Positions 39,546 through 57,285 of a stretch of 64,000 nt of DNA are shown here, piece after piece. The notes beneath the pieces were generated by a model. That model searched no databases. It saw only the letters and a program-made list of their open reading frames with translations, and had not been told where the DNA came from. Position 1 is the stretch's first letter, and every line of letters begins with the position of its first letter. This stretch comes from an uncultured Thermoplasmata archaeon. Its GTDB lineage: Archaea; Thermoplasmatota; DTKX01; GCA-020343715. The position numbers and the translations under genes are program-made. Location: positions 9,482-73,481 of the forward strand of contig CAYGVT010000023.1 of the NCBI GenBank assembly GCA_964353355.1, in the 5' to 3' direction.

Positions 39546-39565
39546 CGCCCAGGCAACGCGCCGGG

Positions 39566-39582
39566 GGGATGATATGCCTTTC
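39566..39582 (-). promoter_or_regulatory. BRE/TATA-like box, nep1 (apparently leaderless)
   Basis: The minus strand reads gaaaggcatatcatccc, centred ~29 nt upstream of ATG 39545. Confidence 0.5.
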
Positions 39583-39697
39583 GCGGGGGACACGACCACC
39601 GTCAAGAGAATAGAAATAGGGTTGATGGACATTGAAGGATGGGCCACGCCCGCGAGGCAAGGGGTCCAATGCGCGCGATGGCCAAGAGGGTCATCCC

Positions 39698-40336
39698 ATG
39701 AAGTGCCATGTATGCGGGACCGAGCCGCCGGCATCGGCCATGTCCTGCCCGGTGTGCGGGGCGCCTCTTACGGGCAAGTCGGGCGGTCCCGACCCAACGC
39801 CCAAACGACCGCTCGCGTACGTGGGCTCTCCGGCCGACATCAGGTCTCCGATTGTGGTCATCATAGCTTCAATCGTCCTTGCGATCCTACTGACAATCGT
39901 GACATGGGCCTACCTGGCGGGCACCGAGGACCATGATGAGGCCGAGCACACCACGGTGAACCTCACCGCCCCGAATATCGTGCGGGTCACGCGCGGGAGT
40001 CTGGTCTGCTGGGATGTGAATTTCACCATCAATAGGATCTCGCCCATGGGCATGGACATTCGATGGGATGAGGCCCGGATAATGATGAAGGACCCAGCAG
40101 GGAGCGACCTTATGGCCTCGCGAAGGATGAAAGAGGACACCGGCCTTTACGATGAATCATCGCCCATGGCAATGGAGGCATGGTACATCGAGACGACGCA
40201 TGGGGGCACGAGGATGACAGCGGGCGACGGGATCAAGGTCACCGGCATCGGCCTGGAGAACGTGGGCGCCATCATCGAGCTCACACTGCGTGGCTTTCGT
40301 ATCGGCACAGCCACCCTCCCCACCACGTTCCCGTGA
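39698..40336 (+). CDS. N-terminal zinc-ribbon / single-TM / ectodomain protein (paralog 1)
   Basis: MKCHVCG-x10-CPVCG ribbon, TM helix IVVIIASIVLAILLTIVTWAYL, and a ~130-aa ectodomain ending TATLPTTFP. Confidence 0.7.
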   Translation: MKCHVCGTEPPASAMSCPVCGAPLTGKSGGPDPTPKRPLAYVGSPADIRSPIVVIIASIVLAILLTIVTWAYLAGTEDHDEAEHTTVNLTAPNIVRVTRGSLVCWDVNFTINRISPMGMDIRWDEARIMMKDPAGSDLMASRRMKEDTGLYDESSPMAMEAWYIETTHGGTRMTAGDGIKVTGIGLENVGAIIELTLRGFRIGTATLPTTFP

Positions 40337-41965: not shown

Positions 41966-42922
41966 GTGTACTGCGCAAGGTGTGGCAACCTGATTCAGGA
42001 TGGGACGTACGTTTGCCAGAGGTGCGGATGGTCAGCGCAGGGCGCGCCACCCGCGCAGCCGGTGCAGCGCGCACAGAGTCCGCAGCCCATGTCCCCATCG
42101 CCGCAGGGCGCTTCGTGGCCCGCGCCCACGGGACCGGTGGTTGTGCAGGCGCCCCCACCAGTGCAGGCCCCGCCGCCCGCGCAGATGCCGCCGTCGCAGC
42201 AGTGGGGCACCCCCTACCCGCCCCCGCAGGTGACGCCGCCCTACGTCCCGCCCCCGCAGATGGCGATGCCCTACACCCCGCCCCCTCCGCCCCAACAGGG
42301 CACGCCCGTGTCAACCTACTTGATGGGCGGCCTCATCTGCTCCGTCGTCGCCGGGTTGATGATCCTATTCACCCCGTTCAGCAGCTTCTACCATTATGCG
42401 ACGATCTACATCCGTATGTGGACTCTCGAGGGCATGCCCCTCCTCCTGCCCCTGGGCCTCCTCCTCCTCGCGCTCGCTGGCTACGCCTCCCAAGGGATGC
42501 GCGACCCCAGGTTCATGTCGCTGGCCCGGCTCTCAAAGGTCAGATACATCGCGGTCGGCGCGATGATATGGGTGTTCCTGGACGGCCTCATCTTCATCGG
42601 GATCATGATCTCGTACGACTACGAGTGGTGGTTCGAGGCGGGCTTCTATGGCGGTGCCATTGGCAGCATCCTCTCCGTCATATTATTCCAGATGGCCGTG
42701 AGTCAGGAGAGCGCGAAGGGCCAGCCCGCCCAACAGGCCGCCTGGCCCGCGACCTACCCGCCCCAGCCCTACCAGTACCAGCCGTCCTATCCGCCACCTC
42801 CCCAGGCGACCCCTCCGCCAGCCTATTCCCCGCCGCCGCAGCAGCCGCAGCAGCCGCAGCAGCTACAGCAGCCGCAGCAGTGGTCGGGCCAGCAACAGCC
42901 GCCTTGGCCGCCCAGGTCGTGA
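41966..42922 (+). CDS. N-terminal zinc-ribbon / P,Q-rich / 4-TM membrane protein
   Basis: GGAGG...GGGAGG precedes GTG 41966. (V)YCARCG-x9-CQRCG ribbon, long P/Q-rich linker, four hydrophobic helices, and a C-terminal PQQPQQPQQLQQPQQ tail. Confidence 0.65.
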   Translation: MYCARCGNLIQDGTYVCQRCGWSAQGAPPAQPVQRAQSPQPMSPSPQGASWPAPTGPVVVQAPPPVQAPPPAQMPPSQQWGTPYPPPQVTPPYVPPPQMAMPYTPPPPPQQGTPVSTYLMGGLICSVVAGLMILFTPFSSFYHYATIYIRMWTLEGMPLLLPLGLLLLALAGYASQGMRDPRFMSLARLSKVRYIAVGAMIWVFLDGLIFIGIMISYDYEWWFEAGFYGGAIGSILSVILFQMAVSQESAKGQPAQQAAWPATYPPQPYQYQPSYPPPPQATPPPAYSPPPQQPQQPQQLQQPQQWSGQQQPPWPPRS

Positions 42923-43056
42923 GGCCGGGGTGGGCGCCCCCATCGCCTGGGGGCGCTGCGGGGGCCAGGGTGGATGCGCACGGTCGACCTCACCACAGCC
43001 AGCTTCTCAGGCCGTGGAAAACTGGACGAAGGGTTATTAGGGGTCGCCCGCCATCG

Positions 43057-46000
43057 ATGCGGGATACTGGACGCCCCGCCACCCCGTACCATGGAGGACC
43101 CGACTTGAGCCCCGGACCCACCCGCATTCTCGTGCCATCGCTGCTCCTCGCACTGATGGCCATCCCGACCGGCGCCGCGCCGGGCGACGGCGGCGTCGAG
43201 CTCATGGGCGCGCTCGAGGACTACGTGGCCTCGAGCACGGGCCTGCCCACGACGAGCGACTTCTTCTTCGTCGTGCTCGCGGACGTCAACGACGACGGGT
43301 TCAGGGACATCGTGTCCTCGGTCTCGAACTACTCGTCCCGCTCCACCATGCTGGGCCTCAGGGTCTACACCTGCAAGGGCGGCACGTCGTGGGAGGATAA
43401 CTCCTCCGGGCTGCCCACGGTCGACCGCTACGGCGGCATCGGCGTGGGCGACATGGACGGCGACGGCGACCTGGACATCGCCTCCGGCATCGAGACGAAC
43501 GAGGGCTCGTCCAACGAGGGCGTCAGGGTGTGGCTCAACAACGGCACCGTGGGCGGCAAGCTCAGCTGGAAGGCCGGCCCCACCCCCAGCACGCGGTGGC
43601 AGTACTGCACCGTGACCGTGGCCGACATCGACGCGGACGGCGACGGCGACCTCATCGCCGGGGGGAAGTCGGGCATCGGCATCGACGTGTACAAGGGCAA
43701 CGGGGGCGCGGGCGGCGCGCTGCAGTGGACCGACAGCAGCACCGGGTTGCCCACGAGCAGCTCCTACACCGGGCTCGCGGTCGCGGACATGAACAGCGAC
43801 GGCGACCTGGACATCGTCGCGACCGACTACCAGAACTCGGGCAATAACGTCCAGCTGTGGACGGGCGACGGCACCGGCAGGTGGACGTCGCGCGTCTCCA
43901 GCATGCCCGCGGGGACCGACCTCACCATGGGCGTCGCGGTCGACGACTTCGACCTCGACGGCAACAACGACATCGTCTACGGCACGCGCGACGCCGAGAT
44001 GATGTGCCTTCTCGGCAACGGCGGCGGCTCCGACGGCGCGAGCTTCTGCTGGACCTCGGCCGACACGGGGCTTCCCACCACGGGCGGCTGGGGGCAGATA
44101 TCGACCGGGGACGTGGACAAGGACGGCGACCCCGACGTGCTCGCGGGGTGCTCGGGCCGCGCCCTCGAGCTATACCTGAGCGACGGCGGCGTGGGAGGCA
44201 CGCTCGACTGGACCAAGGCCAGCAAGGGCCTTCCCACGGGCAACTTCTACGCCGCGGCCCTGGGCGACTTCGACGGCGACCGCGTGCTCGACGTCGTGGG
44301 CGGGCTCATGGCCAGCCGGACCGCTGGCGGGCTGCGCGCCTACAGGGGCGCGGTCACGGGCGAGTCCTACCCCGTGGCCAAGGCCGTGTGGAACGGGACC
44401 GCGGCGAACGAGACCACGGTCGTGCTCGGCGTCGACGTGGAGGCGGACGGCCGCGGCAGCTACGACGCGGAGGACGCGCCGGCGGGCGACGCCGGCGGCA
44501 CCGCGCTCGTCTACGACTGGAACCTCACGCAGGTGCCCGCGCTCTCGGCGCTCGGCGACGCGAACCTCACGCCCAATGACGCGAACGCGACGCCCTCCTT
44601 CAGGCCCGACGCGCTGGGCGACTACGCGCTCACGCTCGTCGTGCGCGATTCCGACCGGCACTGGTCCGAGGTCGCGGCGCGGCTCGTCCTCCACGTGCTC
44701 AAGCCCAACGAACCCCCGGTCGCGGACGCGGGCGCGGACCAGGTCGTGACGACGGGCGCGAGCGTTGAGCTCAACGGCACGGCCTCCCGCGACCCCGACG
44801 GCGAGATAGACGAGTGGGAGTGGAACGCCTCCGCGCTCAACCCCGCCGCGGTGGCCCTCGCAGGCAACAACACCACGGTCGCGAGCTTCACGGCCGGCAC
44901 GGTCGGCCTCTACGCGTTCACGCTGCGAATCCGCGATGACAACGGCAGCTGGAGCGCGCCCGACGAGGTCACGGTCACGGTCGAGCTCCCGCCGAACACC
45001 CGCCCCATCGCCAACGCGGGCGTCGACGTGGGCGTGAGGGAGGGCGAGCCGGTCGAGCTCGACGGCTCCGCCTCCTACGACCCCGACGGCACCATCGCCG
45101 CGTGGGAGTGGGACTGCACGAGCCACCCCGGGCTCGCGCTTGTGAACAATACGACCGCCAGGGTGTCCTTCGTGCCGGCCGAGGCCGGCGACCACACCCT
45201 CGCCCTCAGGGTCCAGGACGACCGTGGCGACTGGAGCCCGCTGGACACGGTCACGGTGCGCGTCGTGGGCGTGGACGTCAACCTCCCGCCCGTCGCGGAC
45301 ATCGAGGGCCCGACGGTGGTCGAGGCCTTCGTGGGCGACTCGGTCGCGCTCTCGGGCGCGACCTCGCGCGACCCGGACGGTACAGTGGTCGAGTGGACCT
45401 GGAACTGCACCACCCACGCGGTCACCTTCGCGGGCCAGGGTACGGCCACGGCCTCCTTCGTCCCGGCCGTGGCAGGCTACCTCTCCATCACGCTCGCGGT
45501 GCGCGACGACAACGGCACGTGGTCGCTGTCGGAGGACGCGGTCGTCGTCGGCGTGGCCGTCCGGCCCAACGTGCCGCCGGCGGCGGTCATAACGGGGCCC
45601 TCAGGAACGGTCATGACGGGCGACACCGTCACCATCGACGGCTCGGACTCCTACGACCCCGACGGCACGATAGCCGTGTGGCTGTGGCATTGCTCCCCCC
45701 CCTCGGGCGTCGGGTTCTACGTGCAGGGCACGTCCCGGATAGTGGACGATCCGCGGGCCGGCACCTACACGTACACGCTCTGGGTCACCGACGATCAGGG
45801 CGCGCAGGGCCCTCCCGCGACGCTCACGTTCACTGTCGTCCAGCGCAACCGCCCGCCCGCTGTGCGATCGACGCTGCCGGTCGCGGGCGGACAGGAGCTC
45901 GAGAACGGCACACTCCTCGTGGCCTGGGAGGCGTCGGACCCGGACGGTGACGAGCTCGAGTACGCCATCGAGGTGATGGATGGCGCAGCGGTGGTGGCAC

Positions 46001-46464
46001 GCGCGTCCGCGGCCCCCGGCGCCAACCGCACCGCCCTCCTCGACTCCTTGCTCCACATCCCCAGGAACGTCACGCTCACCGTGCGCGTGAGGGCGACAGA
46101 GCGTTCCACCTTCGAGAGGCTCAACGCCACGGCCTCGTCCGCGGCCTTCCGCATCGTCGACCCCGCACCGCCCCCGCCGCCGCCCCCGCCCCCGCCGCCC
46201 GACGATGAGCCGGACGTCGTCACGGAGACCAGCGCGGTCACATCCCGCTGGAGCCTCATCGCGCTCGCCGCGCTCGTCGTCGCGGGCGTCGTCGGGGGCG
46301 TGATTCTCGTGGTGTCGCGGTCATCGGCCGGCGCGCCGATGCAACCGCCAGCGGCCGTGTGGCCGCAATCGGCCGTAGGCACGTGCCCCGCGTGCGGCTC
46401 CCCCATCGGCACCGACAACGCCTTCGGCAGGCCCTACTGCCCAAGGTGCGACAGGTACTACTGA
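43057..46464 (+). CDS. giant surface protein D: signal, 7-blade FG-GAP/VCBS (integrin-alpha-like) propeller, ~5 PKD domains, Ig/FN3-like module, poly-Pro stalk, TM, C-terminal zinc ribbon
   Basis: Seven D-x-(D/N)-x-D-G-x-x-D loops (ADVNDDGFRDIV, GDMDGDGDLDIA, ADIDADGDGDLIA, ADMNSDGDLDIV, DDFDLDGNNDIV, GDVDKDGDPDVL, GDFDGDRVLDVV). PKD-type P(V/I)A(D/N)AG...DGS.S.DPDG.I..W.W repeats. PAPPPPPPPPPPPDDEP, then the TM helix, then CPACG-x13-CPRCDRYY. Alternative TTG start near 43105. The track ORF from 41980 is an artefact extension. Confidence 0.85.
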   Translation: MRDTGRPATPYHGGPDLSPGPTRILVPSLLLALMAIPTGAAPGDGGVELMGALEDYVASSTGLPTTSDFFFVVLADVNDDGFRDIVSSVSNYSSRSTMLGLRVYTCKGGTSWEDNSSGLPTVDRYGGIGVGDMDGDGDLDIASGIETNEGSSNEGVRVWLNNGTVGGKLSWKAGPTPSTRWQYCTVTVADIDADGDGDLIAGGKSGIGIDVYKGNGGAGGALQWTDSSTGLPTSSSYTGLAVADMNSDGDLDIVATDYQNSGNNVQLWTGDGTGRWTSRVSSMPAGTDLTMGVAVDDFDLDGNNDIVYGTRDAEMMCLLGNGGGSDGASFCWTSADTGLPTTGGWGQISTGDVDKDGDPDVLAGCSGRALELYLSDGGVGGTLDWTKASKGLPTGNFYAAALGDFDGDRVLDVVGGLMASRTAGGLRAYRGAVTGESYPVAKAVWNGTAANETTVVLGVDVEADGRGSYDAEDAPAGDAGGTALVYDWNLTQVPALSALGDANLTPNDANATPSFRPDALGDYALTLVVRDSDRHWSEVAARLVLHVLKPNEPPVADAGADQVVTTGASVELNGTASRDPDGEIDEWEWNASALNPAAVALAGNNTTVASFTAGTVGLYAFTLRIRDDNGSWSAPDEVTVTVELPPNTRPIANAGVDVGVREGEPVELDGSASYDPDGTIAAWEWDCTSHPGLALVNNTTARVSFVPAEAGDHTLALRVQDDRGDWSPLDTVTVRVVGVDVNLPPVADIEGPTVVEAFVGDSVALSGATSRDPDGTVVEWTWNCTTHAVTFAGQGTATASFVPAVAGYLSITLAVRDDNGTWSLSEDAVVVGVAVRPNVPPAAVITGPSGTVMTGDTVTIDGSDSYDPDGTIAVWLWHCSPPSGVGFYVQGTSRIVDDPRAGTYTYTLWVTDDQGAQGPPATLTFTVVQRNRPPAVRSTLPVAGGQELENGTLLVAWEASDPDGDELEYAIEVMDGAAVVARASAAPGANRTALLDSLLHIPRNVTLTVRVRATERSTFERLNATASSAAFRIVDPAPPPPPPPPPPPDDEPDVVTETSAVTSRWSLIALAALVVAGVVGGVILVVSRSSAGAPMQPPAAVWPQSAVGTCPACGSPIGTDNAFGRPYCPRCDRYY

Positions 46465-46535: not shown

Positions 46536-46883
46536 TCACCCGGGAGGTGCCCTGCGCCCGTCCACTGCGTGTCTCACGGCCATCAGTGGGTGGCGCAGCA
46601 GCATGCGCGGGCCCGACCACCGCATGACGGCGCGGATGCGCTCGCGCATCTCGGGCCTGTAGCAGTGCACCGTGCACCTGCCGCACGTGGCCTTGCCCTC
46701 GCCGAACCGGCACCGGTCGAGGCGCCCGTGGGCGTAGGCGAGCAGCTCCGCGCACCCGTCGCACAGGGCGCCGCGCGTGCCGTGGTGGCCGCGGCAGTAC
46801 ATCCCGACCATGGCCGCGACCGTCCGCTTCTCCCTCCGGATGCGCGGCCCCTCGGCCTCCAGCACGCCGTTCCCAGGTGACAT
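46536..46883 (-). CDS. YgbA-family (nitrous-oxide-stimulated promoter family) Cys-rich protein
   Basis: REKRTVAAMVGMYCRGHHG...LCDGCAELLAYAHGRLDRCRFGEGKATCGRCTVHCYRPEMRERIRAVMRWSGPRMLLRHP closely follows the YgbA family pattern. Confidence 0.85.
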   Translation of the reverse strand: MSPGNGVLEAEGPRIRREKRTVAAMVGMYCRGHHGTRGALCDGCAELLAYAHGRLDRCRFGEGKATCGRCTVHCYRPEMRERIRAVMRWSGPRMLLRHPLMAVRHAVDGRRAPPG

Positions 46884-47400: not shown

Positions 47401-48492
47401 TTGGAGAAGGTCGAGACCATGCGCCCCCAGCTGACCTCCATCAGGAGGCACGCCCTCCCCCTGGCAATCGTGCTGCTCGTCATCATCGGCATAGCGCTGC
47501 TGCTCTCCCGCACCACCGCGGCCGCGACCCCGGACGCGACGCCGCCCTTGGCCAACGCGGGGCTGGACTCGACCGTCCACTCCACCGGCGCGGCCAGGCT
47601 CGACGGCTCGGCCTCGACGGACGACGTCGGCGTGGTCGCGTGGACCTGGACGCTCGAGGACGCGGGCACGGACCACACGCTGCACGGGGCAGTGGCCTAC
47701 TTCCCCTTCACAAAGGCCGGCGCGCACAACGTCACCCTCAACGTCACCGACGCGGCCGGCAACTGGGACACGGACACGGCCGTCATCACCGTGCTCACGC
47801 CCCCCGGCCCCGCCACGCGGCCGCTCGCGTACGACCGCGACGGCTACGTCGAGGTCAAGTGGGGCGCGCCCGCCGAGGACGGCGGGTCCGTCGTCCAGCT
47901 CTACATGGTCTACAGGGGCGAGGCCGCGGACGCGCTCGCGCCCTTCTGCATCGTGGGCACCGAGGCCAACCTGGGCGATGCCTGGGTCCACAACGGACAT
48001 ACCTACTACTACGCGCTGTGCGCTATGAACGAGGTCGGGCTCGGCGCCTTCAGCGAGGTCGTGAACGCCACGCCCATCTCGGTCCCCCAGCCGCCCCGCA
48101 ACCTCACGGTCGTGGCCGTGAACGGGACCGTGCACCTCTCCTGGGAGCCCCCGAACGAGGTCCTGGGCTCGACGGGCCACACGAGCTACGACGTGTACCG
48201 CGGGACCGACCCGGACATGCTCGACTTCCTAAAAAACGTCAGGTACGTCGAGGAGTACGACGACGCGCAGGCCGAGCCGGGGACGACCTACTACTACGCG
48301 GTCGCGGCCAAGGCCGACATCGGCCAGAGCAACCTGGCCGGGCCGGTCGAGGTGAGTATGCCGTCTGAAGGGAGTGCCGAGGACGGGGGGACGGACGCGG
48401 CGCTCGCGCAGACCGCCATCGTCGCCCTCGCGCTGGTGTCCGTCATCGCCATCGCCGCGGTGATGCTCGCCACGAGGCGGTCGGCGCACTGA
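47401..48492 (+). CDS. surface protein with PKD domain + two fibronectin type III domains, N-terminal signal anchor and C-terminal TM
   Basis: PPLANAGLDSTVHSTGAARLDGSASTDDVGVVAWTWTL (PKD). Two FN3-like units (VKWGAPAEDGGS...YYYALCAMNEVG; LSWEPP...YDVYRG...TYYYAVAAKADIG). C-terminal helix TAIVALALVSVIAIAAVMLATRR. Alternative ATG start at 47419. Confidence 0.8.
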   Translation: MEKVETMRPQLTSIRRHALPLAIVLLVIIGIALLLSRTTAAATPDATPPLANAGLDSTVHSTGAARLDGSASTDDVGVVAWTWTLEDAGTDHTLHGAVAYFPFTKAGAHNVTLNVTDAAGNWDTDTAVITVLTPPGPATRPLAYDRDGYVEVKWGAPAEDGGSVVQLYMVYRGEAADALAPFCIVGTEANLGDAWVHNGHTYYYALCAMNEVGLGAFSEVVNATPISVPQPPRNLTVVAVNGTVHLSWEPPNEVLGSTGHTSYDVYRGTDPDMLDFLKNVRYVEEYDDAQAEPGTTYYYAVAAKADIGQSNLAGPVEVSMPSEGSAEDGGTDAALAQTAIVALALVSVIAIAAVMLATRRSAH

Positions 48493-48544: not shown

Positions 48545-48561
48545 AAACAATTAATATGCCC
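48545..48561 (+). promoter_or_regulatory. TATA-like box upstream of the ABC operon
   Basis: aaacaattaatatgccc, an AT-rich island ~50 nt before GTG 48608. Confidence 0.45.
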
Positions 48562-48607
48562 CTGGCCCGTGCGCGTGCATGCCTGGGCCGCTCGTTGCCA
48601 GGCACAG

Positions 48608-49420
48608 GTGATCGGATTGGCGGTCTCCCAGGCGGTCGGGCCGGTCCTCAGTGTCGACGGCCTCGTCAAGGACTTCGGGCCAGTGAGGGCGGTCGATGGC
48701 CTGGCCTTCTCAATCATGCCAGGCCAGATCTACGGCCTGCTCGGCCCCAACGGCGCGGGCAAGACCACGACCATCAGGTGCGTGCTGGGCCTCCTCGAGG
48801 TCCGGTCCGGGGCCATCTCGGTCCTGGGCGAGGATCCCATGCGCGCGCCCGAGCGCGTCAAGGTCAACATCGGCTACGTCGCCGACGACCCCATGCTCTA
48901 CGGCTCCATCACCCCGCGCGAGATGCTCGACTTCGTCGCGTCCGTCAGGGGGCTGGACGCCGCGACCGCGACCGAGCGCGCGCGGGAGCTCATCACAGCC
49001 CTCGACGCGACCAAGTACTACGACTCCCTCATGGCAACGCTCAGCCGCGGCAACAAGCAGAAGTTCCAGATAGTGTCGGCGATGCTCCACGACCCCAGGC
49101 TCCTCATCCTCGACGAGCCCCTCTCGGGCCTGGACGCGCGCACGGGCCGCGTGGTCAAGGGCCTGCTGCGCCTCCACGCGGAGCGCGGCGGGGCCGTGCT
49201 GCTATCGACGCACATCATGGAGCAGGCGCAGACGCTGTGCGACCGCATCGGGGTCATCAACAGGGGCCGGATGGTCGCGGAGGGCACGCTCGAGCAGCTG
49301 CGCGCGGTGCAGCACTCCGCGGACGCCACCCTCGAGGAGCTCTTCCTCAAGCTCACGGAGCAGGAGGAGGACGTGAGGGAGTCCATCGACCGCCTCCGGC
49401 AGGACATGAACGGGAGGTGA
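48608..49420 (+). CDS. ABC transporter ATP-binding protein (ABC-2 / NosF-like subfamily)
   Basis: Walker A GLLGPNGAGKTT, signature LSRGNKQK, Walker B LLILDEPLSGLD, and H-loop LLSTH. GTG 48608 gives MIGLAVSQAVGPVLSVDGLVKDFG; the alternative is GTG 48569. Confidence 0.85.
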   Translation: MIGLAVSQAVGPVLSVDGLVKDFGPVRAVDGLAFSIMPGQIYGLLGPNGAGKTTTIRCVLGLLEVRSGAISVLGEDPMRAPERVKVNIGYVADDPMLYGSITPREMLDFVASVRGLDAATATERARELITALDATKYYDSLMATLSRGNKQKFQIVSAMLHDPRLLILDEPLSGLDARTGRVVKGLLRLHAERGGAVLLSTHIMEQAQTLCDRIGVINRGRMVAEGTLEQLRAVQHSADATLEELFLKLTEQEEDVRESIDRLRQDMNGR

Positions 49421-52416
49421 GCGCGGCGCCCGACCTGGCGACGCCGGGCCGCGACCGCGGCCTGGCCGCTCGCCGCGCCGCGATGGCGATGGTCCTCATC
49501 GCCATCATGCTCCCGTCCCTGTCCCTCCTGCCCACCGCGCGTGCGGACGAGCCCCTGGTCCTCGGCACCCCCCTGCTGGTCGTCGGCGACGCGGCGCTCG
49601 ACGCCCTGTTCGCCAACGCCTCCAGCGACGGGCTCACGCCCGAGACGGCCCACGTGCTCTCCTCCTTGCACATCCGCGTGGAGGGGCGGGGGCCCGCAAT
49701 CGAGCTCAGGGACACGACGCGCCACCTCGTGATTCTCGGGTGCCGGCTCGAGGGGCCTGGCGGCGGCTCGGCGGGGCACGGCGTGCTGCTGCAGGGCTGC
49801 ACCAACGTGAGCGTGGAGGCGTGCCGCGCCTCGGGCTGGGACGCGGGCGTGATGGCCACGGGCTGCGGCCGGGTGGGCGTCGGGAACAGCACCCTCGCCG
49901 ACTGCCACGGGGACGGCCTGCGGGCGGAGGACTGCTGGAACGTCACCGTGGCGGGGAACCGCATCGAGCGGTGCCCGACCGGGATATTGGCCGTCCGCGT
50001 GCAGGGGCTCGTCGTGAGGTCCAACGACTTCTCCGACGGGAGCACCGGCCTTGAGGCGCGCTCTTGCGACGGGGCGATGGTCGACGCCAACGTCGTGTCG
50101 ACGTGCGAGCATGGGCTGCTCGTCTCCTCCTCGGACGGGGCCCGCGTCGTTCGGAACGAGGTCGCCATGTGCACCGACTACGGCGTCCGCGTCGAGGCCG
50201 GCGAGCGGTACGTGGTCGCGCGCAACAGCGCAACAGGCGCAGTGACCGGCATCTCCATCGACCAGTGCCACTCCTCCATCGTCCTCGAGAACGACGCGAC
50301 GTCCAACTACGTGGGGATGGAGCTGCTCGGCTGCACGGGATGCACCATCAGGGACAACCTGGTGTCGAAGAGCGGCGATGTTGGGTTGCGGCTGAGCGGC
50401 TCTGACGACAACGAGCTCGTGGGGAACCGCGTCCGGCTCAACATGGTGGGCATCGAGCTCAGGTCGTCGGAGGGCAACACCTTCAACGGGACGGTCCTGC
50501 GCGCGAACCACTGGAGGGCTGTCGAGGGCGACGTCGGGGACAACCGGTTCACGGGCACGGTCGAGAGCCTCAACGGCTGGCTCAGGTTCGTGCTGCTCTA
50601 CCTGCCGCCCATCGTGGCCGCGGCGGTCGCCCCGTTCCCCGTGCGCAGGTACCTGAGGAGGCGGCGCGAGGGGGCGCGGCCGCCGGGCGTTGCGGTGAGG
50701 CCCAGGTTCCCCGCCGGCCGCGCCGGGCTGTGGGCCCTGTCAGCCTACGTCATGGACGAGACCTTCTTCATCTCGCAGCTCGAGCAGGCCGGCCCGCAGC
50801 GCGAGCGCGTCATCGAGCGCTACAAGGCGGGCATCGCCTCCGCCAAGGCGCTCACGACCATGACCTCGCTCATCGTCGCCGCCATCCTGGTCATGCTCAC
50901 GTCCATCCCCATCTCGGGCCTCATGGGCGTGCTGGATGTGGATGTCACGGGGGAGAACGTGAACGACGTGCTGTTCGCCTCCTCCATCCCGCTGCTGCTC
51001 TACGGCGCGATGCTGTTCGTGGTGCTGCTCGTGTTCACGCTCACGTTCCTCGCGAGCCTCCTGCAGGGCGACGCGTTCAAGCCCCTGGGTGCGCTCCCGC
51101 TCGACAGGAGGGAGATGCGCCGCGTGACGGCATACGTGCTCCTGCGCATGTACGGGCTGCCCCTGGCCGTCGTGGTCCTGGCCTACCCGGTCATCGGCGG
51201 CGTCTTCACGGGCTCGTGGGGCTTCTTCGCCGCCGCCCTCCTGGGCAACGCGCTCAACGTCGCGACGGTCCTCGCGCTCGTCGTGTGGACGTGCGACGTC
51301 TTCGGGAGGCGCGTGTTCAGGGGGGGCTCGTCGAGGGGCTCCACCGCGCTGCGCGTGGTGGTGATGGTGGGCTACACCGTCGTCGCCTTCTCCATCTTCA
51401 TCATCATGGGGGTCGCGCTCGATACCATCGGCGGCCTTTACGCCGAGCAGAGGCTGGCTGGCGCCTCCGGCGAGGTCGTCAACGCCGCGCTCGCGCTGGT
51501 CCCCTTCGCCCTCCCCAGCTCCTACTTGACCGCGATGACCCTCGTGCCCATGGGTTCGGTCCCGCTCCCGGTCGTCGCGGCGGCCATCGCCGGCACGGCG
51601 GCGCAGGCGGCAATCGCCTACGCGCTCGTAGGGCGCGCCCGGCGCGCGCTGGGCGCGGTCGCGATGGCCGCCGAGGGCGGCGGTGGGGGTCCAGGCCAGC
51701 GCGCCACGGTCGGCGACATCGCTCTGCGCACGCGGTCGCCCGTGGCCGCGTTCGCGAGGGGGGGGCTCCTGGTCGCGTCGAGGGAGATGGGCACGCTCAT
51801 GTACCTCATCATGCCCATCGTCCTGCCCATAATGATGGTCGTGCCCTCCGCCATGGACGACCCTGCCATCGACACATCATCGGTGCTCATGGGCTACATC
51901 ATGTACACCGGCATCGGGGCCGTGCTCATCGCAGTCGCGCTCTCGACCGCGGACGCCAACCTCGGGGGCGTGCTCATGGGTCTGCCGTTCAGGACCCGTG
52001 ACCTCTACAGGGCGAAGCACGCGACCATGTCGGCGGTGCTGGCGCTCTCGCTGCTGGTCCTGCTTTCGATCAGCCTCCCGCGCGCACGGGACCCATCGCA
52101 GGTGCTCACCTACGCGGTGCCGCAGCTCGCGCTCATCCCGGCCGTGGCGTCCATCGCGCTCCTGCTCTACTCCGCGGCCTTCGGGAGGTTCAACCGCCGG
52201 TTCACCTTCTTCCTCATCGACCCGACGAACACGGTCCTCAAGTACATCTCCATCGGGGTCGTGCTGTACGGCCTCGTCATCGGGGAGGTCGTCGGGACAT
52301 GGTGGGCGGTCGGGCCCGCGGGCGTCGACCCGGCCATCGTGGTCGGCGCGCTGGTCGCGTCGAACCTCGCCCTCGCGGCCATGCTCGAGGGGGCCGCGAG
52401 GAGGATGCTGGGATAG
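49417..52416 (+). CDS. fusion protein: signal anchor + Cys-rich right-handed beta-helix (NosD/CASH-like) ectodomain + ~13-TM permease-like domain
   Basis: The GTG overlaps the ATPase stop (GGGAGGTGA). MAMVLIAIMLPSLSLLPTARA, then ~330 aa of 22-24-residue coils carrying 13 Cys, then TM helix WLRFVLLYLPPIVAAAVAPFPV, the RRYLRRRREG linker, and about 12-13 further hydrophobic helices. There is no in-frame stop between the parts. Alternative ATG start at 49483. Confidence 0.8.
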   Translation: MSAAPDLATPGRDRGLAARRAAMAMVLIAIMLPSLSLLPTARADEPLVLGTPLLVVGDAALDALFANASSDGLTPETAHVLSSLHIRVEGRGPAIELRDTTRHLVILGCRLEGPGGGSAGHGVLLQGCTNVSVEACRASGWDAGVMATGCGRVGVGNSTLADCHGDGLRAEDCWNVTVAGNRIERCPTGILAVRVQGLVVRSNDFSDGSTGLEARSCDGAMVDANVVSTCEHGLLVSSSDGARVVRNEVAMCTDYGVRVEAGERYVVARNSATGAVTGISIDQCHSSIVLENDATSNYVGMELLGCTGCTIRDNLVSKSGDVGLRLSGSDDNELVGNRVRLNMVGIELRSSEGNTFNGTVLRANHWRAVEGDVGDNRFTGTVESLNGWLRFVLLYLPPIVAAAVAPFPVRRYLRRRREGARPPGVAVRPRFPAGRAGLWALSAYVMDETFFISQLEQAGPQRERVIERYKAGIASAKALTTMTSLIVAAILVMLTSIPISGLMGVLDVDVTGENVNDVLFASSIPLLLYGAMLFVVLLVFTLTFLASLLQGDAFKPLGALPLDRREMRRVTAYVLLRMYGLPLAVVVLAYPVIGGVFTGSWGFFAAALLGNALNVATVLALVVWTCDVFGRRVFRGGSSRGSTALRVVVMVGYTVVAFSIFIIMGVALDTIGGLYAEQRLAGASGEVVNAALALVPFALPSSYLTAMTLVPMGSVPLPVVAAAIAGTAAQAAIAYALVGRARRALGAVAMAAEGGGGGPGQRATVGDIALRTRSPVAAFARGGLLVASREMGTLMYLIMPIVLPIMMVVPSAMDDPAIDTSSVLMGYIMYTGIGAVLIAVALSTADANLGGVLMGLPFRTRDLYRAKHATMSAVLALSLLVLLSISLPRARDPSQVLTYAVPQLALIPAVASIALLLYSAAFGRFNRRFTFFLIDPTNTVLKYISIGVVLYGLVIGEVVGTWWAVGPAGVDPAIVVGALVASNLALAAMLEGAARRMLG

Positions 52417-52468: not shown

Positions 52469-53233
52469 TCATGGCGGGCCTGGCCGGGAGATCTTGTAGG
52501 CCGCGGGGGCCCCGTAGACGGGCGCCGGGAGGGCGGGCTCCTCCGGGGGTGATTGGGGCTGGGCCTCGGGGACCGGGGCGACCGGGATGGGCTGCTCCGG
52601 CGGAGGCCCCGCGGGCTCCCAAACGGTCGATGGGGCCGTGGCGGGCCTCGGCGTGGCGGCACCGGGGGGAGCGGGCGCCTGGGGCGTGGGCTGCGGCCGA
52701 CCCTGCTGGTCCACGTACCGGGGCCGTCTCTTGTAGATGGCGAAGGCGATGACCGCGACCACCAGGGTGACGGCGAGGACCGCACCGCACAGGTAGATGC
52801 TGGATGTGCCCTCCTCCCACGTCACGTCGAACTCGACCAGGGAGGCATCGTCGAGCAGGTTCGGGCCGTGCTCGACGACGATGTAGTAGGTGCCCTCGTC
52901 GCTCCATGTGAAGCTGTCGTAGGCGGAATCGGTGTTGAGATGGGAGTGCGCGCTGTAGTAGGAGAACTCGTCGTACTCGGGGGAGATGTACTCGGTGTAG
53001 TCGGATTCGTCCAGGAACAGGACGTTGATGGGCGGTCCCGATAGGACGGAGACGTCGTAGAATATCGAGATGGAGATGCCGTCATAGAAGAGGATCTCCA
53101 CGACGAGGGGGTCGTCGACGGCGATGGTCCGCGTGCCCGAGCTCTCCCCCGCGAGCGCGGGCGGGGCGAGCAGCGTCACCAGCATGATAGCCGAGAGGAG
53201 GACGGGCCCCGACCGAGATGGCCTTGGGGACAT
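52469..53233 (-). CDS. type-I membrane protein (signal, beta-rich ectodomain, TM, Pro-rich cytoplasmic tail), paralog 1
   Basis: MSPRPSRSGPVLLSAIMLVTLLAPPALAG signal, GPPINVLFLDESDYTEY motif, TM helix IYLCGAVLAVTLVVAVIAFAIY, and a Pro-rich tail of ~90 aa. Confidence 0.7.
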   Translation of the reverse strand: MSPRPSRSGPVLLSAIMLVTLLAPPALAGESSGTRTIAVDDPLVVEILFYDGISISIFYDVSVLSGPPINVLFLDESDYTEYISPEYDEFSYYSAHSHLNTDSAYDSFTWSDEGTYYIVVEHGPNLLDDASLVEFDVTWEEGTSSIYLCGAVLAVTLVVAVIAFAIYKRRPRYVDQQGRPQPTPQAPAPPGAATPRPATAPSTVWEPAGPPPEQPIPVAPVPEAQPQSPPEEPALPAPVYGAPAAYKISRPGPP

Positions 53234-53252
53234 CGATTGCGTGATGGCCCTC

Positions 53253-53267
53253 GGGGATATATGCACC
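53253..53267 (-). promoter_or_regulatory. TATA-like box (leaderless geometry) for 52469..53233
   Basis: The minus strand reads ggtgcatatatcccc, centred ~27 nt upstream of ATG 53233. Confidence 0.5.
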
Positions 53268-53386
53268 TTGCGCGGGGGGGGGCGGGACGGACCGCCCGTC
53301 CATCCCCGGGTGCGCGGTGGCTGGATCAGGCTAGGGCCATCGGCACTTCCCATGCCATGTGGAGCACGGCGGGCCGGGACGCGACC

Positions 53387-54001
53387 CTAACCAGACGGTG
53401 GGGGTGGCGGGTGCTGCCCGGGCGGCGGGTCTTGCCCTGGCGGCATGGGCTGCCCTGGCGCCGCGGTCTGCGCCATCGGCGCCATGGCCCCCTTGGCCCT
53501 CCTTCGCCTGCGTCGGACGACCAGGAGGATGGGGACGACGATCAGGATGGCGATGACCACGAACACCAATACCACGCCAATGATCGCCGATGTCGACGCA
53601 TCGGTCCACTTGACGGTATAGGTGATGCTGGCGGTCTGATTCGCGGATAGGCCGTTCCCGATGACCACGTAGAAGGTGCCCTTCTTGGACCAGTACCATT
53701 CCTTATGGGCGGCCTTGGAGTCATTCGTGCAGTATTTGGTGTAGGACTCGAACCCGTTGCCGGCGCAGAGGTCGGCATAGTCGTTGTCGTCCATGAAGTA
53801 TACGTCGATCGGGGGTCCCGTGATGACCTCCATGTCGTACTCGATTCTCATGCTGGCGCCCTCACACTTGATCTCCACCCCGTGAAAGGCACCAGCCTCC
53901 AGCACCGTCGTGTTCGTCTCCTCGTTCGCCGCCGCGCACGCGGCGAGCGCCGCGAGCGCGAGCAGCGGGACGATGACCAGCAAGTACCCCCTCATCTGCA
54001 T
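53387..54001 (-). CDS. type-I membrane protein, paralog 2
   Basis: MQMRGYLLVIVPLLALAALAACAAA signal, GPPIDVYFMDDNDYADL motif, TM helix AIIGVVLVFVVIAILIVVPILLVV followed by RRRRRR, and a Pro-rich tail. Candidate starts are 54001 or 53995 (ATG), or 54013 (TTG). Confidence 0.7.
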   Translation of the reverse strand: MQMRGYLLVIVPLLALAALAACAAANEETNTTVLEAGAFHGVEIKCEGASMRIEYDMEVITGPPIDVYFMDDNDYADLCAGNGFESYTKYCTNDSKAAHKEWYWSKKGTFYVVIGNGLSANQTASITYTVKWTDASTSAIIGVVLVFVVIAILIVVPILLVVRRRRRRAKGAMAPMAQTAAPGQPMPPGQDPPPGQHPPPPPSG

Positions 54002-54040
54002 CAATCCCCCCAAGGTGTCATGGGTGTATGTCTATGGGTG

Positions 54041-54056
54041 GTATATTGCCCTTTTC
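54041..54056 (-). promoter_or_regulatory. BRE/TATA-like box for 53387..54001
   Basis: The minus strand reads gaaaagggcaatatac. Confidence 0.4.
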
Positions 54057-54703
54057 CGTGGCATCCGATGCCGCGCTGGATGTGCGGGCGATGCGTCCAT
54101 ATTTGTGGTGGCGCCTGCCCTCCCGACCTGCACGATCACCAGCCGCACCTGACGTCTAGCATGCAGTCCTCGATGGGTGCGATGCACGCGCGGCGGTAGG
54201 GGCATGGGGACGCAAGCCTGGGGTGTGGGATGCATGATAGGCGCTTCAGGGCAGTCGAGGCGATATCCCTGTCCCCTTGAATCGTCATGGATGAATGCAG
54301 GATTCCCTGGTGGAGGAGACGCGTGGGGTGGTTCGCGCCAAAAAGTGGGTGGGACAGTCCCGTAGGCCCTAGGAAGCTCCGATGTTGTGCTCACAGCAGA
54401 TTCCATGCATCATACTACACAAGGATTGACGTTTTCGTGTATCATGATGCACTTAACGAGTGGAGACGGGTACGAAGCCCGTCCCGCACACAAGGTGGTT
54501 GGCTGACATCCTGGTACTTGCGCAATCCCCCACCTCATTGTATGACGCCTTCCGAACTTCTAATCCTAGCCCAGATCATGACCCCTCTTCTCAGTGGAGC
54601 GGGCGTCTGCCTCCGGCTAGCTGGCGACCGTTGCACGGGTTTGTACCTATCATACGCCGTAATAGGGGTAGAGACCCTCGAAATAAACAAAAATGGACAT
54701 TCT

Positions 54704-54730
54704 ACCGAATTATATATATACTAATTCGGT
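54704..54730 (+). promoter_or_regulatory. perfect 9-bp inverted repeat bracketing a TATA box: candidate autoregulatory operator/promoter of the wHTH gene
   Basis: ACCGAATTA-tatatatac-TAATTCGGT. Its centre is ~26 nt upstream of ATG 54743, which is leaderless geometry. Confidence 0.55.
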
Positions 54731-54742
54731 CATTCATGCTTT

Positions 54743-55609
54743 ATGTTGCAGGAGACAATAAACGCTTCGGAATTGAGGGTGTTCGAGCTCATCCTCTCCG
54801 GACCGCTCACGGTCTCCGATATCGTCCATAGAACGGACCTCTCAATCTCGTGGGTCTCCGAGTGCCTGGCTCACTTAGAGCAGTTGTGGTTCGTGGAGAG
54901 GCGCAAGGAGGGCCTCACGGTCCGGGCCAGCCTCGCTCGCACACGCACGGCCGAGGGCCTCCGTCTGCTGATCAAGGAAAGCCCGTACCTCGCGCCATCA
55001 GAAATCCTCACAGGACATGGCCTTGTGATGCTTCCACTGCTCCTTAGGCCTGGTGCTACGCCAGCCCGGATCGGCGAGCGGACGTCCGTCTCGGCTCGGA
55101 CCGCCAGGAGGGGAATCCACCAGTGGCGGGGCATTGGGGTGGTCGTCAAGCGGACGTCTCCGTTGAGATATCTCCTCAACCCGGACCGGGTCTTCCTGGA
55201 GGCGTTCGTCAAGGACTACTCGATGGAGAGGAACCAACGGTACCTCGGGTCGATGATTCCCACGGCCGTGACGATATGGCAGTGGAGGGACGAGATCCTG
55301 TTCACGACTGACGCCGATATCGAGGAGGATGTGTTCCTCCGGGCCGGTCCGACGAGGCTCGGGGAGCTTGGATACGACATCGTGTCGACGAGGAGATGCT
55401 ATCTCCGTTCTCCCGGCCAGCCCGTTGTCTGTGAAGAGGAGGCGTTGATACAGACATTGAGGATGGATCCCGAGAATCCGAGACCGATGCGGTTCATCAG
55501 GGATGCCATCGACAGGGGGCGGGCCAAGATCGAGGTCCTCCTTGATTTCGCTAGCAAGTACGAGGTCACGGGGCTGATGAGGAAGGAAGCTGCCGACAAT
55601 GGCGAGTAG
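54743..55609 (+). CDS. winged-helix transcriptional regulator, AbiEi-like antitoxin candidate
   Basis: N-terminal wHTH (ELRVFELILSGPLTVSDIVHRTDLSISWVSECLAHLEQLWFVERRKEG), a second HTH-like segment, and a ~130-aa C-terminal domain. It overlaps the next gene by 11 nt. Confidence 0.7.
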   Translation: MLQETINASELRVFELILSGPLTVSDIVHRTDLSISWVSECLAHLEQLWFVERRKEGLTVRASLARTRTAEGLRLLIKESPYLAPSEILTGHGLVMLPLLLRPGATPARIGERTSVSARTARRGIHQWRGIGVVVKRTSPLRYLLNPDRVFLEAFVKDYSMERNQRYLGSMIPTAVTIWQWRDEILFTTDADIEEDVFLRAGPTRLGELGYDIVSTRRCYLRSPGQPVVCEEEALIQTLRMDPENPRPMRFIRDAIDRGRAKIEVLLDFASKYEVTGLMRKEAADNGE

Positions 55610-56411
55610 GAAGCAGTTCGATGGGACCGCCATCCACCGCATCCTCGAGCAGGTCTCCACCGCGTTGGATGTGAAGGTCCTTTGTTGGGTGATAGGTGGT
55701 TACACGATGATTCTGGACCGTGTCAAGACGACCACGAAGGACGTGGACATCGTGTTCGACTCGGTCGAGGACGCGACGGCCTTCGTGCGCGGCCTCGCGC
55801 GGATGGACTTCCACCAGCAGCGGGAGCTCGGAATCAGTTATCACGCGCTCGATGCGGTGACGATCATGGACGGACCAGAGGGGCTTCGCTTCGACCTGTT
55901 CGTCGGGAAGGTGTGCAAGTGCCTCGTCCTCACGGATGGCATGCGGCGAAGGGCCAAGGACATCCCCCTTCCGGGGAATCTGCGGCTCAAGGTCATCTCG
56001 CGCGAGGATGTCTTCCTGTTCAAGAGCGTCACGGAGAGGGACCAGGACCTCGCGGACATGGCGATGCTCGTCAGCCCTGCGCTGCGGTGGGACGTCATCA
56101 GGGGAGAGATCGCCGAGCAGCCCGAATCCTGGAAATGGGTCGCCAGGGTGTACTTGAAGCTTGTCGAGCTCGAGAGGTCGAAGGGAATAACCTCGCCATT
56201 GATGAGAGAGCTGGAGCCGGAGGCCGAGACCATGACGGCCATAGCCGTGCTCGTGGACCGGATGGGGCGCGGCCCCATCACCCACGCCGAGGCCAGGGAG
56301 CTGCTGGACCCCCAGAGCGACACGTTCCATCGGCACGTGCTCGAGAGGATGGTCGGGCTCGGCATCGCGCGGGAGAGGGACGGGCGATATCAGCTGGTCG
56401 AGGGGCGGTGA
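55599..56411 (+). CDS. minimal nucleotidyltransferase (DUF6036/AbiEii-MNT-like toxin candidate) with a C-terminal winged helix
   Basis: VIGGYTMILDRVKTTTKDVDIVF (G-G-x9-13-D-x-D), KVISREDVFLFKSVTERDQDLADMAML, and a C-terminal wHTH-like HVLERMVGLGIARERDGRYQLV. Confidence 0.7.
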   Translation: MASRKQFDGTAIHRILEQVSTALDVKVLCWVIGGYTMILDRVKTTTKDVDIVFDSVEDATAFVRGLARMDFHQQRELGISYHALDAVTIMDGPEGLRFDLFVGKVCKCLVLTDGMRRRAKDIPLPGNLRLKVISREDVFLFKSVTERDQDLADMAMLVSPALRWDVIRGEIAEQPESWKWVARVYLKLVELERSKGITSPLMRELEPEAETMTAIAVLVDRMGRGPITHAEARELLDPQSDTFHRHVLERMVGLGIARERDGRYQLVEGR

Positions 56412-56484
56412 GCGTCGGCGGGGAGCGGTCGCTCGGACCTGGGAGGTCCACCGGACGGTCGCCCGACCAATGCCCGGGTGATTC

Positions 56485-57285
56485 CTATCGTCCCTTCTTC
56501 CCCTTCCGCCTTCCCGTCCTCGCCACCTTGCGCCTGCCCTTCGGGGTCTTGGGCGGGGGCCTCGGCGCCTTCATGGCCGCCACCGCCGCGGCGTACTCCT
56601 CGTTCTCATCCCTCATGAACGTCTCCCGGTCGACGAGGGGCCTGCGCACCGCCTCGAGCACCTCGGGGGCCATGTACCCCCTCTCGACGAGCTGCCGGCC
56701 CGCGCGGCGGGCCGCCCTCAGCACCTCCTTGCCGTCCTCCGTGAGCGCGCCTTTGTCCTTCAGGCAGGAGGCGTGCGGCCTCAGCACGGCGCCCGAGAAC
56801 TCGAGCCCCACGTCCTTGCACAGCTCGGTCATCACGTGGATGACGGTGCCGAAGTTGTCGAGCTCCCACCAGCCCGAGACGCCCACGAGCACGAACCTCT
56901 TCGTCCTTACGTCGCTGTGGAACCGGGCCCGGGTCCGCCCCTCCTTGGTCTCCACCATGCACTGGATGAGGGGCATGAGGCGGTTGAGGAGGTTCGTGAG
57001 GGCGCCTGGGAGCGGGACGAAGACGGGCGTCCCCACCACCCAGACGTCGGCCTCGCGCAGCCGGGGGTAGAGCGACTGCATGTCGTCGCGGATGTGGCAC
57101 CGGCCGACGGTGTTGAACCAGCACGCGAAGTCCCCCACGCAGGGCCCTATGTCGAGCTCGCTGGCGTAGACCTGGTCGACGTCGGCGCCCGCCTCGACCA
57201 TGCCGTCGATGAACGCGTCGAGCACGAGCGCGGTGTTCCCCTTCCCCATGCGCGGGCTGCCGTTTATGGCGAGGACCTTGGTCAT
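56485..57285 (-). CDS. NADPH-dependent FMN reductase / iron-sulfur flavoprotein-like protein with a basic C-terminal tail
   Basis: MTKVLAINGSPRMGKGNTALVLDAFIDGM flavodoxin-like N-terminus and a Cys cluster region GPCVGDFACWFNTVGRCH. It ends PKGRRKVARTGRRKGKKGR. Confidence 0.8.
   Translation of the reverse strand: MTKVLAINGSPRMGKGNTALVLDAFIDGMVEAGADVDQVYASELDIGPCVGDFACWFNTVGRCHIRDDMQSLYPRLREADVWVVGTPVFVPLPGALTNLLNRLMPLIQCMVETKEGRTRARFHSDVRTKRFVLVGVSGWWELDNFGTVIHVMTELCKDVGLEFSGAVLRPHASCLKDKGALTEDGKEVLRAARRAGRQLVERGYMAPEVLEAVRRPLVDRETFMRDENEEYAAAVAAMKAPRPPPKTPKGRRKVARTGRRKGKKGR

Follow-up and report, generated by a model that had tools for sequence, protein, structure and literature searches.

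The question raised by this locus is what kind of machine two adjacent genes encode. They lie on the forward strand of a 64,000-nucleotide stretch of contig CAYGVT010000023.1 from an uncultured Thermoplasmata archaeon (hereafter the window). One gene codes for an ATP-binding cassette (ABC) ATPase of 270 residues (48608..49420) and the other for a protein of 999 residues (49417..52416). In the latter, one chain runs from a signal sequence through a beta-helix and an extra transmembrane (TM) helix, TM0, to an ABC membrane domain made of two 6-TM units in tandem. A first-pass annotation of the sequence had described this fusion, likened its parts to the NosDFY machinery and concluded that it cannot be placed in a described system. 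That conclusion does not hold, since the membrane part can be assigned to the kin of Pfam family PF09847 (12TM_1) and the Rv1217c-Rv1218c transporter is a solved single-chain precedent. The explanation that we favour, and regard as reasonably probable, is that the two genes form an archaeal ABC system on the NosDFY plan, in which one polypeptide holds the D part and two Y parts. The underlying kind of machine is known; the fused D-Y-Y chain, the link between a 12TM_1-type protein and an ATPase, and the swappable accessory modules are the new part, and none of the three was found in the literature searched.

The beta-helix profile leads to NosD and the model of the second membrane half to NosY, so that two parts of the chain independently indicate the same solved machine. 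The extracytoplasmic domain (residues 44-388; 49546..50580) comprises an N-terminal cap (P52 to I86) and about 12 parallel beta-helix coils. The coils (residues ~95-388) are 22-24 residues each, with Asn and Gly ladders and two stacks of Cys. Such coils are thus present as described earlier; their register was confirmed, and Pfam Beta_helix matches at 4e-33. Pfam NosD (PF05048) matches at 3.1e-28, with 99.1 bits against a gathering threshold of 23.6; many archaeal surface proteins also fall under this broad model. The TIGR03804 repeat of NCBIfam is found at 1.7e-17. A search of PDB sequences with the whole window protein returned beta-helix enzymes only. With a profile of the ectodomains of eight fusions, NosD came first (5.7e-15, profile positions 87-359), making it the best solved sequence relative, in line with the NosD-like character proposed before. 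AlgG follows at 1.1e-14 over a shorter stretch, and other solved matches are glycan-active helices.

The beta-helix is tethered to the membrane domain by TM0 (residues 389-409; 50581..50643), which was assigned from hydropathy and is absent in stand-alone relatives. A basic linker follows (residues 410-434, RRYLRRRREGARPPGVAVRPRFPAG; 50644..50718), which starts with RRYLRRRREG (residues 410-419), would be cytoplasmic by the positive-inside rule and is modelled with a low to moderate predicted local distance difference test score (pLDDT). Membrane half 1 (residues 435-754; 50719..51678) contains a connecting helix and TM1-TM6; TM5 and TM6 are separated by two short helices. It is joined by a Gly-rich cytoplasmic linker of low pLDDT (residues 755-774; 51679..51738; blocks 38-39) to membrane half 2 (residues 775-999; 51739..52413), containing connecting helix 2 and TM7-TM12. 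The TM helix, basic stretch and 12-13 further helices recognized in the first-pass annotation are all present, the number of further helices being 12.

We modelled residues 378-999 with AlphaFold from a 61-sequence alignment (pLDDT 86.5, predicted TM-score 0.82). The model confidently predicts that the membrane part is built of two tandem 6-TM halves, and the domain looks type V-like. In each half an amphipathic helix precedes the first TM helix, six TM helices follow, and an LxxLP...R motif occupies the loop between the second and the third. In membrane-part numbering, the helices of half 1 run from H58-117 to H340-377; H58-117 precedes TM1, and H398-412 precedes TM7. The motif DAFKPLGALPLDRREMRR (residues 552-569; 51070..51123; consensus F..L.TLPL), a candidate for coupling helix 1 in the cytoplasmic TM2-TM3 loop, is located between H138-172 and H187-221. 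Its counterpart in the TM8-TM9 loop, VLMGLPFRTRDLYRAKH (residues 851-868; 51967..52020), is a candidate for coupling helix 2; the family consensus in this half reads KDL....RD......IMP and then L.SLP...RD...AK. When the two halves are aligned to each other, the LxxLP motifs are in register (hhalign E 3e-4, probability 40%). In type V ABC folds a connecting helix lies before TM1 and TM7 and a coupling helix between TM2 and TM3 and between TM8 and TM9 (PMC11406275), and both helix positions are found in the model of both halves. The short helices H306-316 and H322-330 lie between TM5 and TM6 of half 1.

Structural comparison with Foldseek against the PDB is, at modest scores, consistent with the same class of fold. 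For the whole membrane domain the best match is Rv1217c (8K1O_A), although weak (probability 0.80, TM-score 0.32-0.37, E 0.53). A separate model of half 2 (residues 760-999, pLDDT 88.0) gave as its top seven matches NosY chains from five NosDFY or NosFY entries (E 0.014-0.31, probability 0.92-1.00, TM-score ~0.5), followed by CcmB (TM-score 0.56-0.60, probability 0.99). Lower in the list are ABCG2, ABCG5/8, PmtCD and Rv1217c, interspersed from below rank 8 with membrane proteins that are unrelated. The roughly doubled permease of the first-pass annotation thus reappears, at the level of the fold, as two 6-TM halves, of which the second has NosY at the head of its matches. A fold of the MacB/FtsX (type VII) or LptFG type was considered and rejected, as neither occurs among the structural matches.

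At the sequence level the membrane part is a divergent, distant relative of PF09847. Pfam and NCBIfam models gave no match to the membrane part as a whole. Its last third (residues 749-999) matches 12TM_1 at 2.9e-5 with 23.8 bits, below the gathering cut-off of 33.2. Among the aligned homologues 20 of 61 match PF09847, the best at 3.8e-17, and the precomputed annotations of the cluster to which the window protein belongs list this family. The motifs LxxLP and KD...R, which we take to be those named in the Pfam entry, are present in the window family.

To collect relatives of the membrane part, 1.84 billion representatives were searched exhaustively with phmmer (E <= 0.001), which yielded 222 sequences; a word-indexed homologue search, even with a profile, recovered only 3-5 close relatives. 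The relatives come from uncultured archaea (Asgard, Bathyarchaeota and ‘Methanobacteriota’ metagenome-assembled genomes, MAGs) and are annotated as hypothetical. Seven clusters among the 222 bear the helix (P0002 and P0004-P0009; 37-84% identity in the membrane part). Most of the others are proteins of 540-600 residues that start directly after TM0, at about query residue 58 of the membrane part. At least 11 representatives (including P0029, P0058, P0086, P0098, P0104, P0125 and P0131) have a C-terminal Rce1-like/CPBP protease domain. They are mostly from Asgard MAGs and have no beta-helix, and the dedicated ATPase is still found upstream (locus L011, 3918-6548). One relative, P0143, carries a C-terminal Acyl_transf_3 domain (residues 723-1065). 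Acyl_transf_3 is a family of membrane acyltransferases that usually modify surface glycans.

The ATPase matches Pfam ABC_tran (1.7e-26), and its best NCBIfam model is drrA (3.7e-60), with GldA and NodI types as the other best models. All motifs are intact: Walker A, the signature LSRG, Walker B (LLILDE, with the catalytic Glu), the D-loop SGLD and the H-loop STH. Its closest PDB sequences are the nucleotide-binding domains of ABCA4, ABCA7 and ABCA1, and Rv1218c, the best bacterial solved relative (8.7e-44). All of these belong to type V systems, and the sequence places the ATPase in the type V/ABC-2 class. The membrane protein is therefore encoded beside an ATPase that belongs to the ABC-2/ABCA/DrrA class and has all its motifs, as expected for a type V system.

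This pairing is conserved. An ABC ATPase gene lies directly upstream, on the same strand, in 10 of the 10 loci in which the upstream region is visible, bearing out the proposed link between the two proteins. The ten loci are the window, L001, L003, L005 and L006; the stand-alone forms L007 (Hodarchaeota MAG) and L008 (JGI contig); L009, from a ‘Methanobacteriota archaeon’ MAG, the only match among GTDB species genomes; L010, which contains P0010, the closest helix-less relative; and L011, the CPBP fusion, from a Promethearchaeota MAG. The paired ATPases are 56-70% identical to that of the window, whereas other ABC-2 ATPases encoded in these loci reach 35-38% and the membrane proteins of related loci 26-40%. 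The contrast with the membrane proteins indicates that the ATPase is a dedicated, slowly evolving partner.

The fusion could in principle be an artefact, an assembly error or frameshift joining two genes. Nothing more than the general risk of metagenome assembly speaks for this, and we consider it so improbable that it can be set aside. The open reading frame (ORF) from GTG 49417 runs for 999 codons without a stop until 52416. Long chance ORFs, many of them spurious, are frequent in this window of ~70% GC, but both the ATPase ORF and the fusion ORF have the codon-position GC signature of real genes, including GC at third codon positions (GC3), and the fusion ORF has homologues at 33-86% identity. 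The uninterrupted frame of about 1,000 residues reported before is therefore genuine. An identical protein is encoded on a Logan contig, the same continuous ORF on an ENA contig at 80% identity, and a 5'-truncated JGI relative at 86% identity spans the junction. More distant fusions, at 32-39% whole-protein identity, are found in NCBI, JGI and ENA assemblies and in one GTDB genome. Three independent assemblies and five representative clusters at greater distance thus contain the unbroken fusion, with no separating stop or frameshift in the former, as judged from the assemblies. The protein sequence of the junction (last coil, N-x-W, TM0 and basic linker) is also conserved, and together with the independent assemblies this excludes an artefact as far as the data show. 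An alignment-based locus search of GTDB species genomes gave no locus with one alignment and one (L009) with another; the same type of search of JGI metagenome contigs gave none.

The closest known system in overall design is NosDFY(L), which matures N2O reductase (PDB 7O0Y, 7O12, 7O17, 7ZNQ). Both systems have a parallel beta-helix on the periplasmic or extracellular side, a 6-TM ABC-2-type unit present twice and a separate ATPase. The NosDFY entries in the PDB contain one NosD chain and two NosY chains, and the copy ratio in the window protein, one helix and two membrane halves, is the same. The differences are that in the window system D, Y and Y are one polypeptide with an extra TM helix and non-identical Y-like halves, that its ATPase is closer to ABCA proteins and Rv1218c than to NosF, and that its host is an archaeon. 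The window protein also stays below the NosD equivalog cut-off and lacks conserved His or Met ligands as well as nosZ, nosL and nosR companions (see below). The first-pass annotation had called it a Rosetta-stone fusion. The fusion is real, but the contact between D and Y that it would predict is already known from the electron cryo-microscopy (cryo-EM) structures of NosDFY.

Other systems resemble single parts. Rv1217c-Rv1218c from Mycobacterium tuberculosis (PDB 8K1M-8K1P) likewise has a 12-TM chain carrying both transmembrane domains and a separately encoded ATPase; Rv1217c acts with two copies of Rv1218c and has a type V fold (PMC11406275). The window pair shares this layout (12 TM helices with an internal repeat in one chain, and a single ATPase gene), and its connecting helices and candidate coupling helices are placed as in the type V fold. 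In contrast, Rv1217c, a drug/lipid exporter, has neither an extracytoplasmic beta-helix nor TM0, and apart from the low structural similarity given above there is no detectable sequence similarity between the membrane parts. The haem-handling complex CcmAB(CD) (PDB 7F02) contains CcmB, which among proteins outside the Nos group matches half 2 best in structure. The complex, a type V-like ABC system, works on a partner protein or cofactor and is not a solute pump. Its membrane subunits are separate chains without a beta-helix, and its haem/cytochrome c context is absent here. AlgG, a mannuronan C5-epimerase of the CASH/PbH1 type (PDB 4NK6, 4OZY), has the same type of repeat, but the window coils lack the DPHD motif and conserved acidic or His residues, and AlgG is a soluble protein without a fused ABC membrane domain. 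PF09847 (‘Membrane protein of 12 TMs’) comprises proteins of equal length class and helix number. These proteins have been described as probably not linked to ABC systems, whereas the window family has an adjacent dedicated ABC ATPase in all ten informative loci; the window protein further differs by its N-terminal beta-helix and TM0. The literature searched contained nothing relevant on PF09847, 12TM_1 or DUF2074.

Several observations weigh against a NosDFY-like design. The ABC2_membrane models of Pfam gave no match to the membrane part, so that of the families proposed in the first-pass annotation Beta_helix and NosD were found and the ABC2_membrane families were not. Comparison of the 61-sequence membrane profile with PDB sequences produced nothing meaningful, with spurious matches to G-protein-coupled receptors. 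The structural matches are modest, none reaching E <= 0.001 and those of half 2 having TM-scores of 0.45-0.60, and they therefore represent consistent evidence at the fold level and not proof of homology. Half 2 has no obvious pair of short helices, TM11 and TM12 being connected by a 6-residue loop. The 60 PDB sequences closest to the ATPase do not include NosF. The closely related P0010 has no helix; because close relatives do without it, the helix is accessory and not essential to what the core pair does, the pair must be active without it, and simple export stays alive as a rival. Finally, in the related loci compared, no neighbour besides the ATPase is conserved beyond close relatives, so that any assignment of substrate is a guess.

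Despite the resemblance to NosDFY, the system is, by its sequence and its gene neighbours, not a member of the nos family of systems. A true nos-type system, supplying copper or sulfide to an N2O reductase or another periplasmic-type cuproenzyme encoded elsewhere, is very unlikely. Such a system would account for NosD and NosY being the best solved relatives of the two parts and for the Pfam NosD score above cut-off. Yet the match to TIGR04247 (NosD_copper_fam; E 1.3e-14) reaches 53.6 bits where the cut-off is 300. Canonical NosD has a conserved transient copper site of His-Met-Met, as described in PMC13452462 with reference to Mueller et al. 2022, but no His or Met of the ectodomain is conserved in at least seven of the eight fusions. 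In an approximate mapping, the residues aligned to the GVHYMF, ALMQ and ILMN coils of NosD are aliphatic or polar. No nosZ, nosL or nosR was detected in Pfam scans of the GC3-supported ORFs of the window, as the first-pass annotation had stated, nor in the related loci. The few window ORFs outside these scans are all shorter than 330 residues, which rules out nosZ but not a small nosL. A small Cys-rich gene of the YgbA_NO family (‘nitrous oxide-stimulated promoter’; 46536-46880, reverse strand; Pfam 1.2e-43), 1.7 kb upstream of the pair, could be taken as a further hint of a nos-type system, but it is missing from the other loci, so that its proximity looks coincidental. A functional link of the pair to YgbA_NO or to the PKD and FG-GAP surface proteins of the window was rejected because neither is conserved in distant loci. 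Delivery of copper to N2O reductase is not the role of this system.

Nor does the cysteine ladder support the metal or sulfur species that the first-pass annotation had named among possible substrates. The ladder itself exists: 13 Cys (residues 109, 128, 136, 150, 163, 173, 186, 217, 230, 252, 284, 306 and 309) occupy two registers of the coils, position ~10 and position 1/23, and there is a single further Cys in the remaining ~610 residues. In the eight fusions, C136 is conserved in eight, C109 in seven and C128 in six; C136 alone is invariant, and the other positions of the ladder are mostly Ser or Asn. By this comparison the ladder is a real but mostly lineage-specific packing feature. As it is mostly not conserved, it was rejected as a site of metal or sulfur chemistry. 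The coil residues kept in at least seven of the eight fusions are nearly all Asn or Gly, together with S351, W388 and a few aliphatic positions; the best-conserved stretch of the ectodomain is the N-terminal cap (P52, G57, D71, G72, A78, V80, L84 and I86).

Two further explanations concern what the beta-helix does. The membrane domain may be a plain type V exporter, in the manner of Rv1217c-1218c, ABCG or Wzm/Wzt-type transporters, whose cargo would be hydrophobic or linked to lipid, with the helix as a fused binding or adhesion passenger that is not driven by ATP. We see this as possible, though doubtful. Most relatives are stand-alone proteins of 540-600 residues that lack the helix yet have this dedicated ATPase, the structure that best matches the whole domain is that of a drug/lipid exporter, and the nearest solved relatives of the ATPase are lipid-transporting ABCA proteins. 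Moreover, a role in adhesion or glycan binding has been proposed for NosD-annotated helices in archaea and archaeal viruses (PMC13452462). Against it stands the constancy of the fusion point: in seven representative clusters, down to 32-39% whole-protein identity, the helix is joined at the same place through the same TM0 and basic linker, which favours a functional coupling of the helix. In addition, NosY and CcmB, which head the structural matches of the half domain, are parts of cofactor hand-over machines rather than solute pumps.

Alternatively, the membrane domain could move a (lipid-linked) glycan out of the cell, and the beta-helix could be an epimerase, lyase or hydrolase, like AlgG, acting on it. 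AlgG is nearly level with NosD among the matches of the ectodomain profile, whose other solved matches are glycan-active; one relative has the Acyl_transf_3 domain; a GT87 gene lies after the pair in L005 and a Peptidase_M14 gene before it in L005 and L009, the L009 copy with CBM56; and a glycan-synthesis cluster is present in the window, though ~20 kb away. What makes this explanation improbable is that conservation in the coils of the eight fusions is limited to Asn, Gly, one Ser and one Cys, with no Asp, Glu or His, and that the DPHD and polygalacturonase motifs are absent. Nor does any glycan-related neighbour recur across the loci. As neither catalytic nor ligand residues are conserved in the helix, a docking or hand-over function fits better than an enzyme, and the conservation pattern makes such a platform the most likely role of the beta-helix.

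In the NosDFY-like system that we favour, the gene pair, the order of domains, the folds, the conserved pairing and the lack of nos genes are observed, and we infer the stoichiometry (two ATPases to one membrane protein), topology, mechanotransmission and substrate. Two copies of the ATPase would sit beneath a single membrane protein, whose two non-identical 6-TM halves would form a pseudo-symmetric type V (ABC-2) membrane domain. The NosD/CASH-type beta-helix would be exported by the N-terminal signal sequence and stay tethered through TM0. The ATPases would dock on both LxxLP loops and the connecting helices; closure of the ATPase dimer by ATP would shift both membrane halves, and the motion would be relayed to the beta-helix on the outer face, as in NosDFY. 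The beta-helix would be the platform on which a substrate or partner at the cell surface docks or is handed over, and the membrane domain may itself extrude that molecule. A surface glycan or glycoprotein is the most likely class of substrate, with weak support from the CASH-type fold, the acyltransferase variant and the glycan-related genes scattered among the neighbours.

The ATPase is encoded in frame 2, with its TGA stop at 49418-49420. The listed ORF begins at GTG 48569, an alternative in-frame start, but GTG 48608 is the most likely start, because it gives 270 residues and the orthologues have 265-277 (269-270 in the three nearest to the window). The first-pass annotation had let the ATPase region begin at 48545; with the ATPase starting at 48608, this position falls in the intergenic region, beside AATTAATA (48549..48556, +). 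AATTAATA is the sole AT-rich stretch of the 115-nt intergenic region in DNA of ~70% GC. It lies ~50 nt ahead of GTG 48608, a start that leaves space for it as a TATA box, and we regard this TATA-like sequence as a candidate archaeal promoter of the ATPase gene.

The start of the fusion ORF and the stop of the ATPase gene overlap as GTGA (49417..49420, +). This overlap, from which translational coupling had been proposed, is also present in the 80%-identical locus L001; L005 has a 1-nt overlap, and other relatives have gaps of 4-39 nt. GGGAGG (49411-49416) was rejected as a Shine-Dalgarno sequence: it codes for Gly-Arg and leaves no spacer before GTG 49417, which makes it a poor candidate for a ribosome-binding site. 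Coupling, if it occurs, would act through the stop/start overlap. The fusion protein begins with a signal sequence (residues 1-43; 49417..49545, +) that has a positively charged n-region, a hydrophobic core at residues 21-39 seen in the hydropathy profile and, as read from the sequence, ARA|DE as a likely signal-peptidase site, where the chain would be cleaved. All features given for the fusion protein lie on the same strand.

Downstream of the fusion gene and convergent with it, two paralogous membrane-anchored proteins with Pro-rich tails are encoded (52469-53353 and 53387-54013, reverse strand), in which no Pfam family scored above its cut-off. This pair is kept downstream in the close relatives L002 and L004 (30-45% identity) and not in distant loci. 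The Peptidase_M14 zinc carboxypeptidase gene upstream of the ABC pair in L005 (6703-8436) and in L009 (1933-3897, with CBM56) is absent from the window. In L005 the pair is followed by the GT87 gene. A radical SAM/SPASM enzyme and a methyltransferase are encoded beside the stand-alone pair in L007 (4681-6030, reverse strand) and may form a peptide-maturation cluster. The pair is flanked by a PKD-repeat protein in L001 and by PKD and beta-helix proteins in L003.

The wider window is crowded with genes for very large predicted surface proteins (41980-46464 and 47401-48492 on the forward strand; 3988-12713, 28949-32845 and 60581-64000 on the reverse strand), with FG-GAP/PKD, PKD/fn3, DUF7948 with SBBP beta-propeller and cadherin-like, Big_13, and GLUG/PKD domains. 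Two groups of glycan-biosynthesis genes (245-3955 and 19216-28822) encode GT4 glycosyltransferases, a Wzx-like Polysacc_synt flippase, a rhamnosyl O-methyltransferase, other methyltransferases and a B12-binding radical SAM enzyme; their first two ORFs resemble RmlD/RmlA-type genes by eye. The GC content dips to 58.8% at 54000-56500, where an ORF resembling a winged-helix regulator (54743-55609) overlaps a DUF6036 nucleotidyltransferase ORF (55599-56411); this region may be a small mobile or toxin-antitoxin-like insert. A gene for the EMG1/NEP1 rRNA methyltransferase (38853-39767, reverse strand; Pfam 9.9e-52) is an archaeal marker, and all named relatives are from archaeal MAGs, in line with it.

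The gene fusion confirms the 1:2 arrangement of NosD and NosY seen by cryo-EM, and indicates that this design is used beyond N2O respiration, in archaea. It also ties 12TM_1, a Pfam family of unclear role, to a dedicated and highly conserved ABC ATPase, and the immediate practical gain is a better annotation of proteins now called hypothetical. The exchange of beta-helix, CPBP protease and acyltransferase makes the family well suited to the question whether type V ABC domains can serve as general extracytoplasmic motors. We tentatively speculate, without holding it to be likely, that 12TM_1-type proteins and their ATPases are archaeal single-chain type V ABC motors that power swappable effector modules in or at the membrane (a NosD-like beta-helix, a CPBP/Rce1-like intramembrane protease or Acyl_transf_3) and do not transport solutes. 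If this were true, the window protein would be an ATP-driven extracellular platform that assembles or remodels the archaeal cell surface, and the family would be an independent archaeal counterpart of the mechanotransmitting systems NosDFY, CcmAB, LolCDE and FtsEX.

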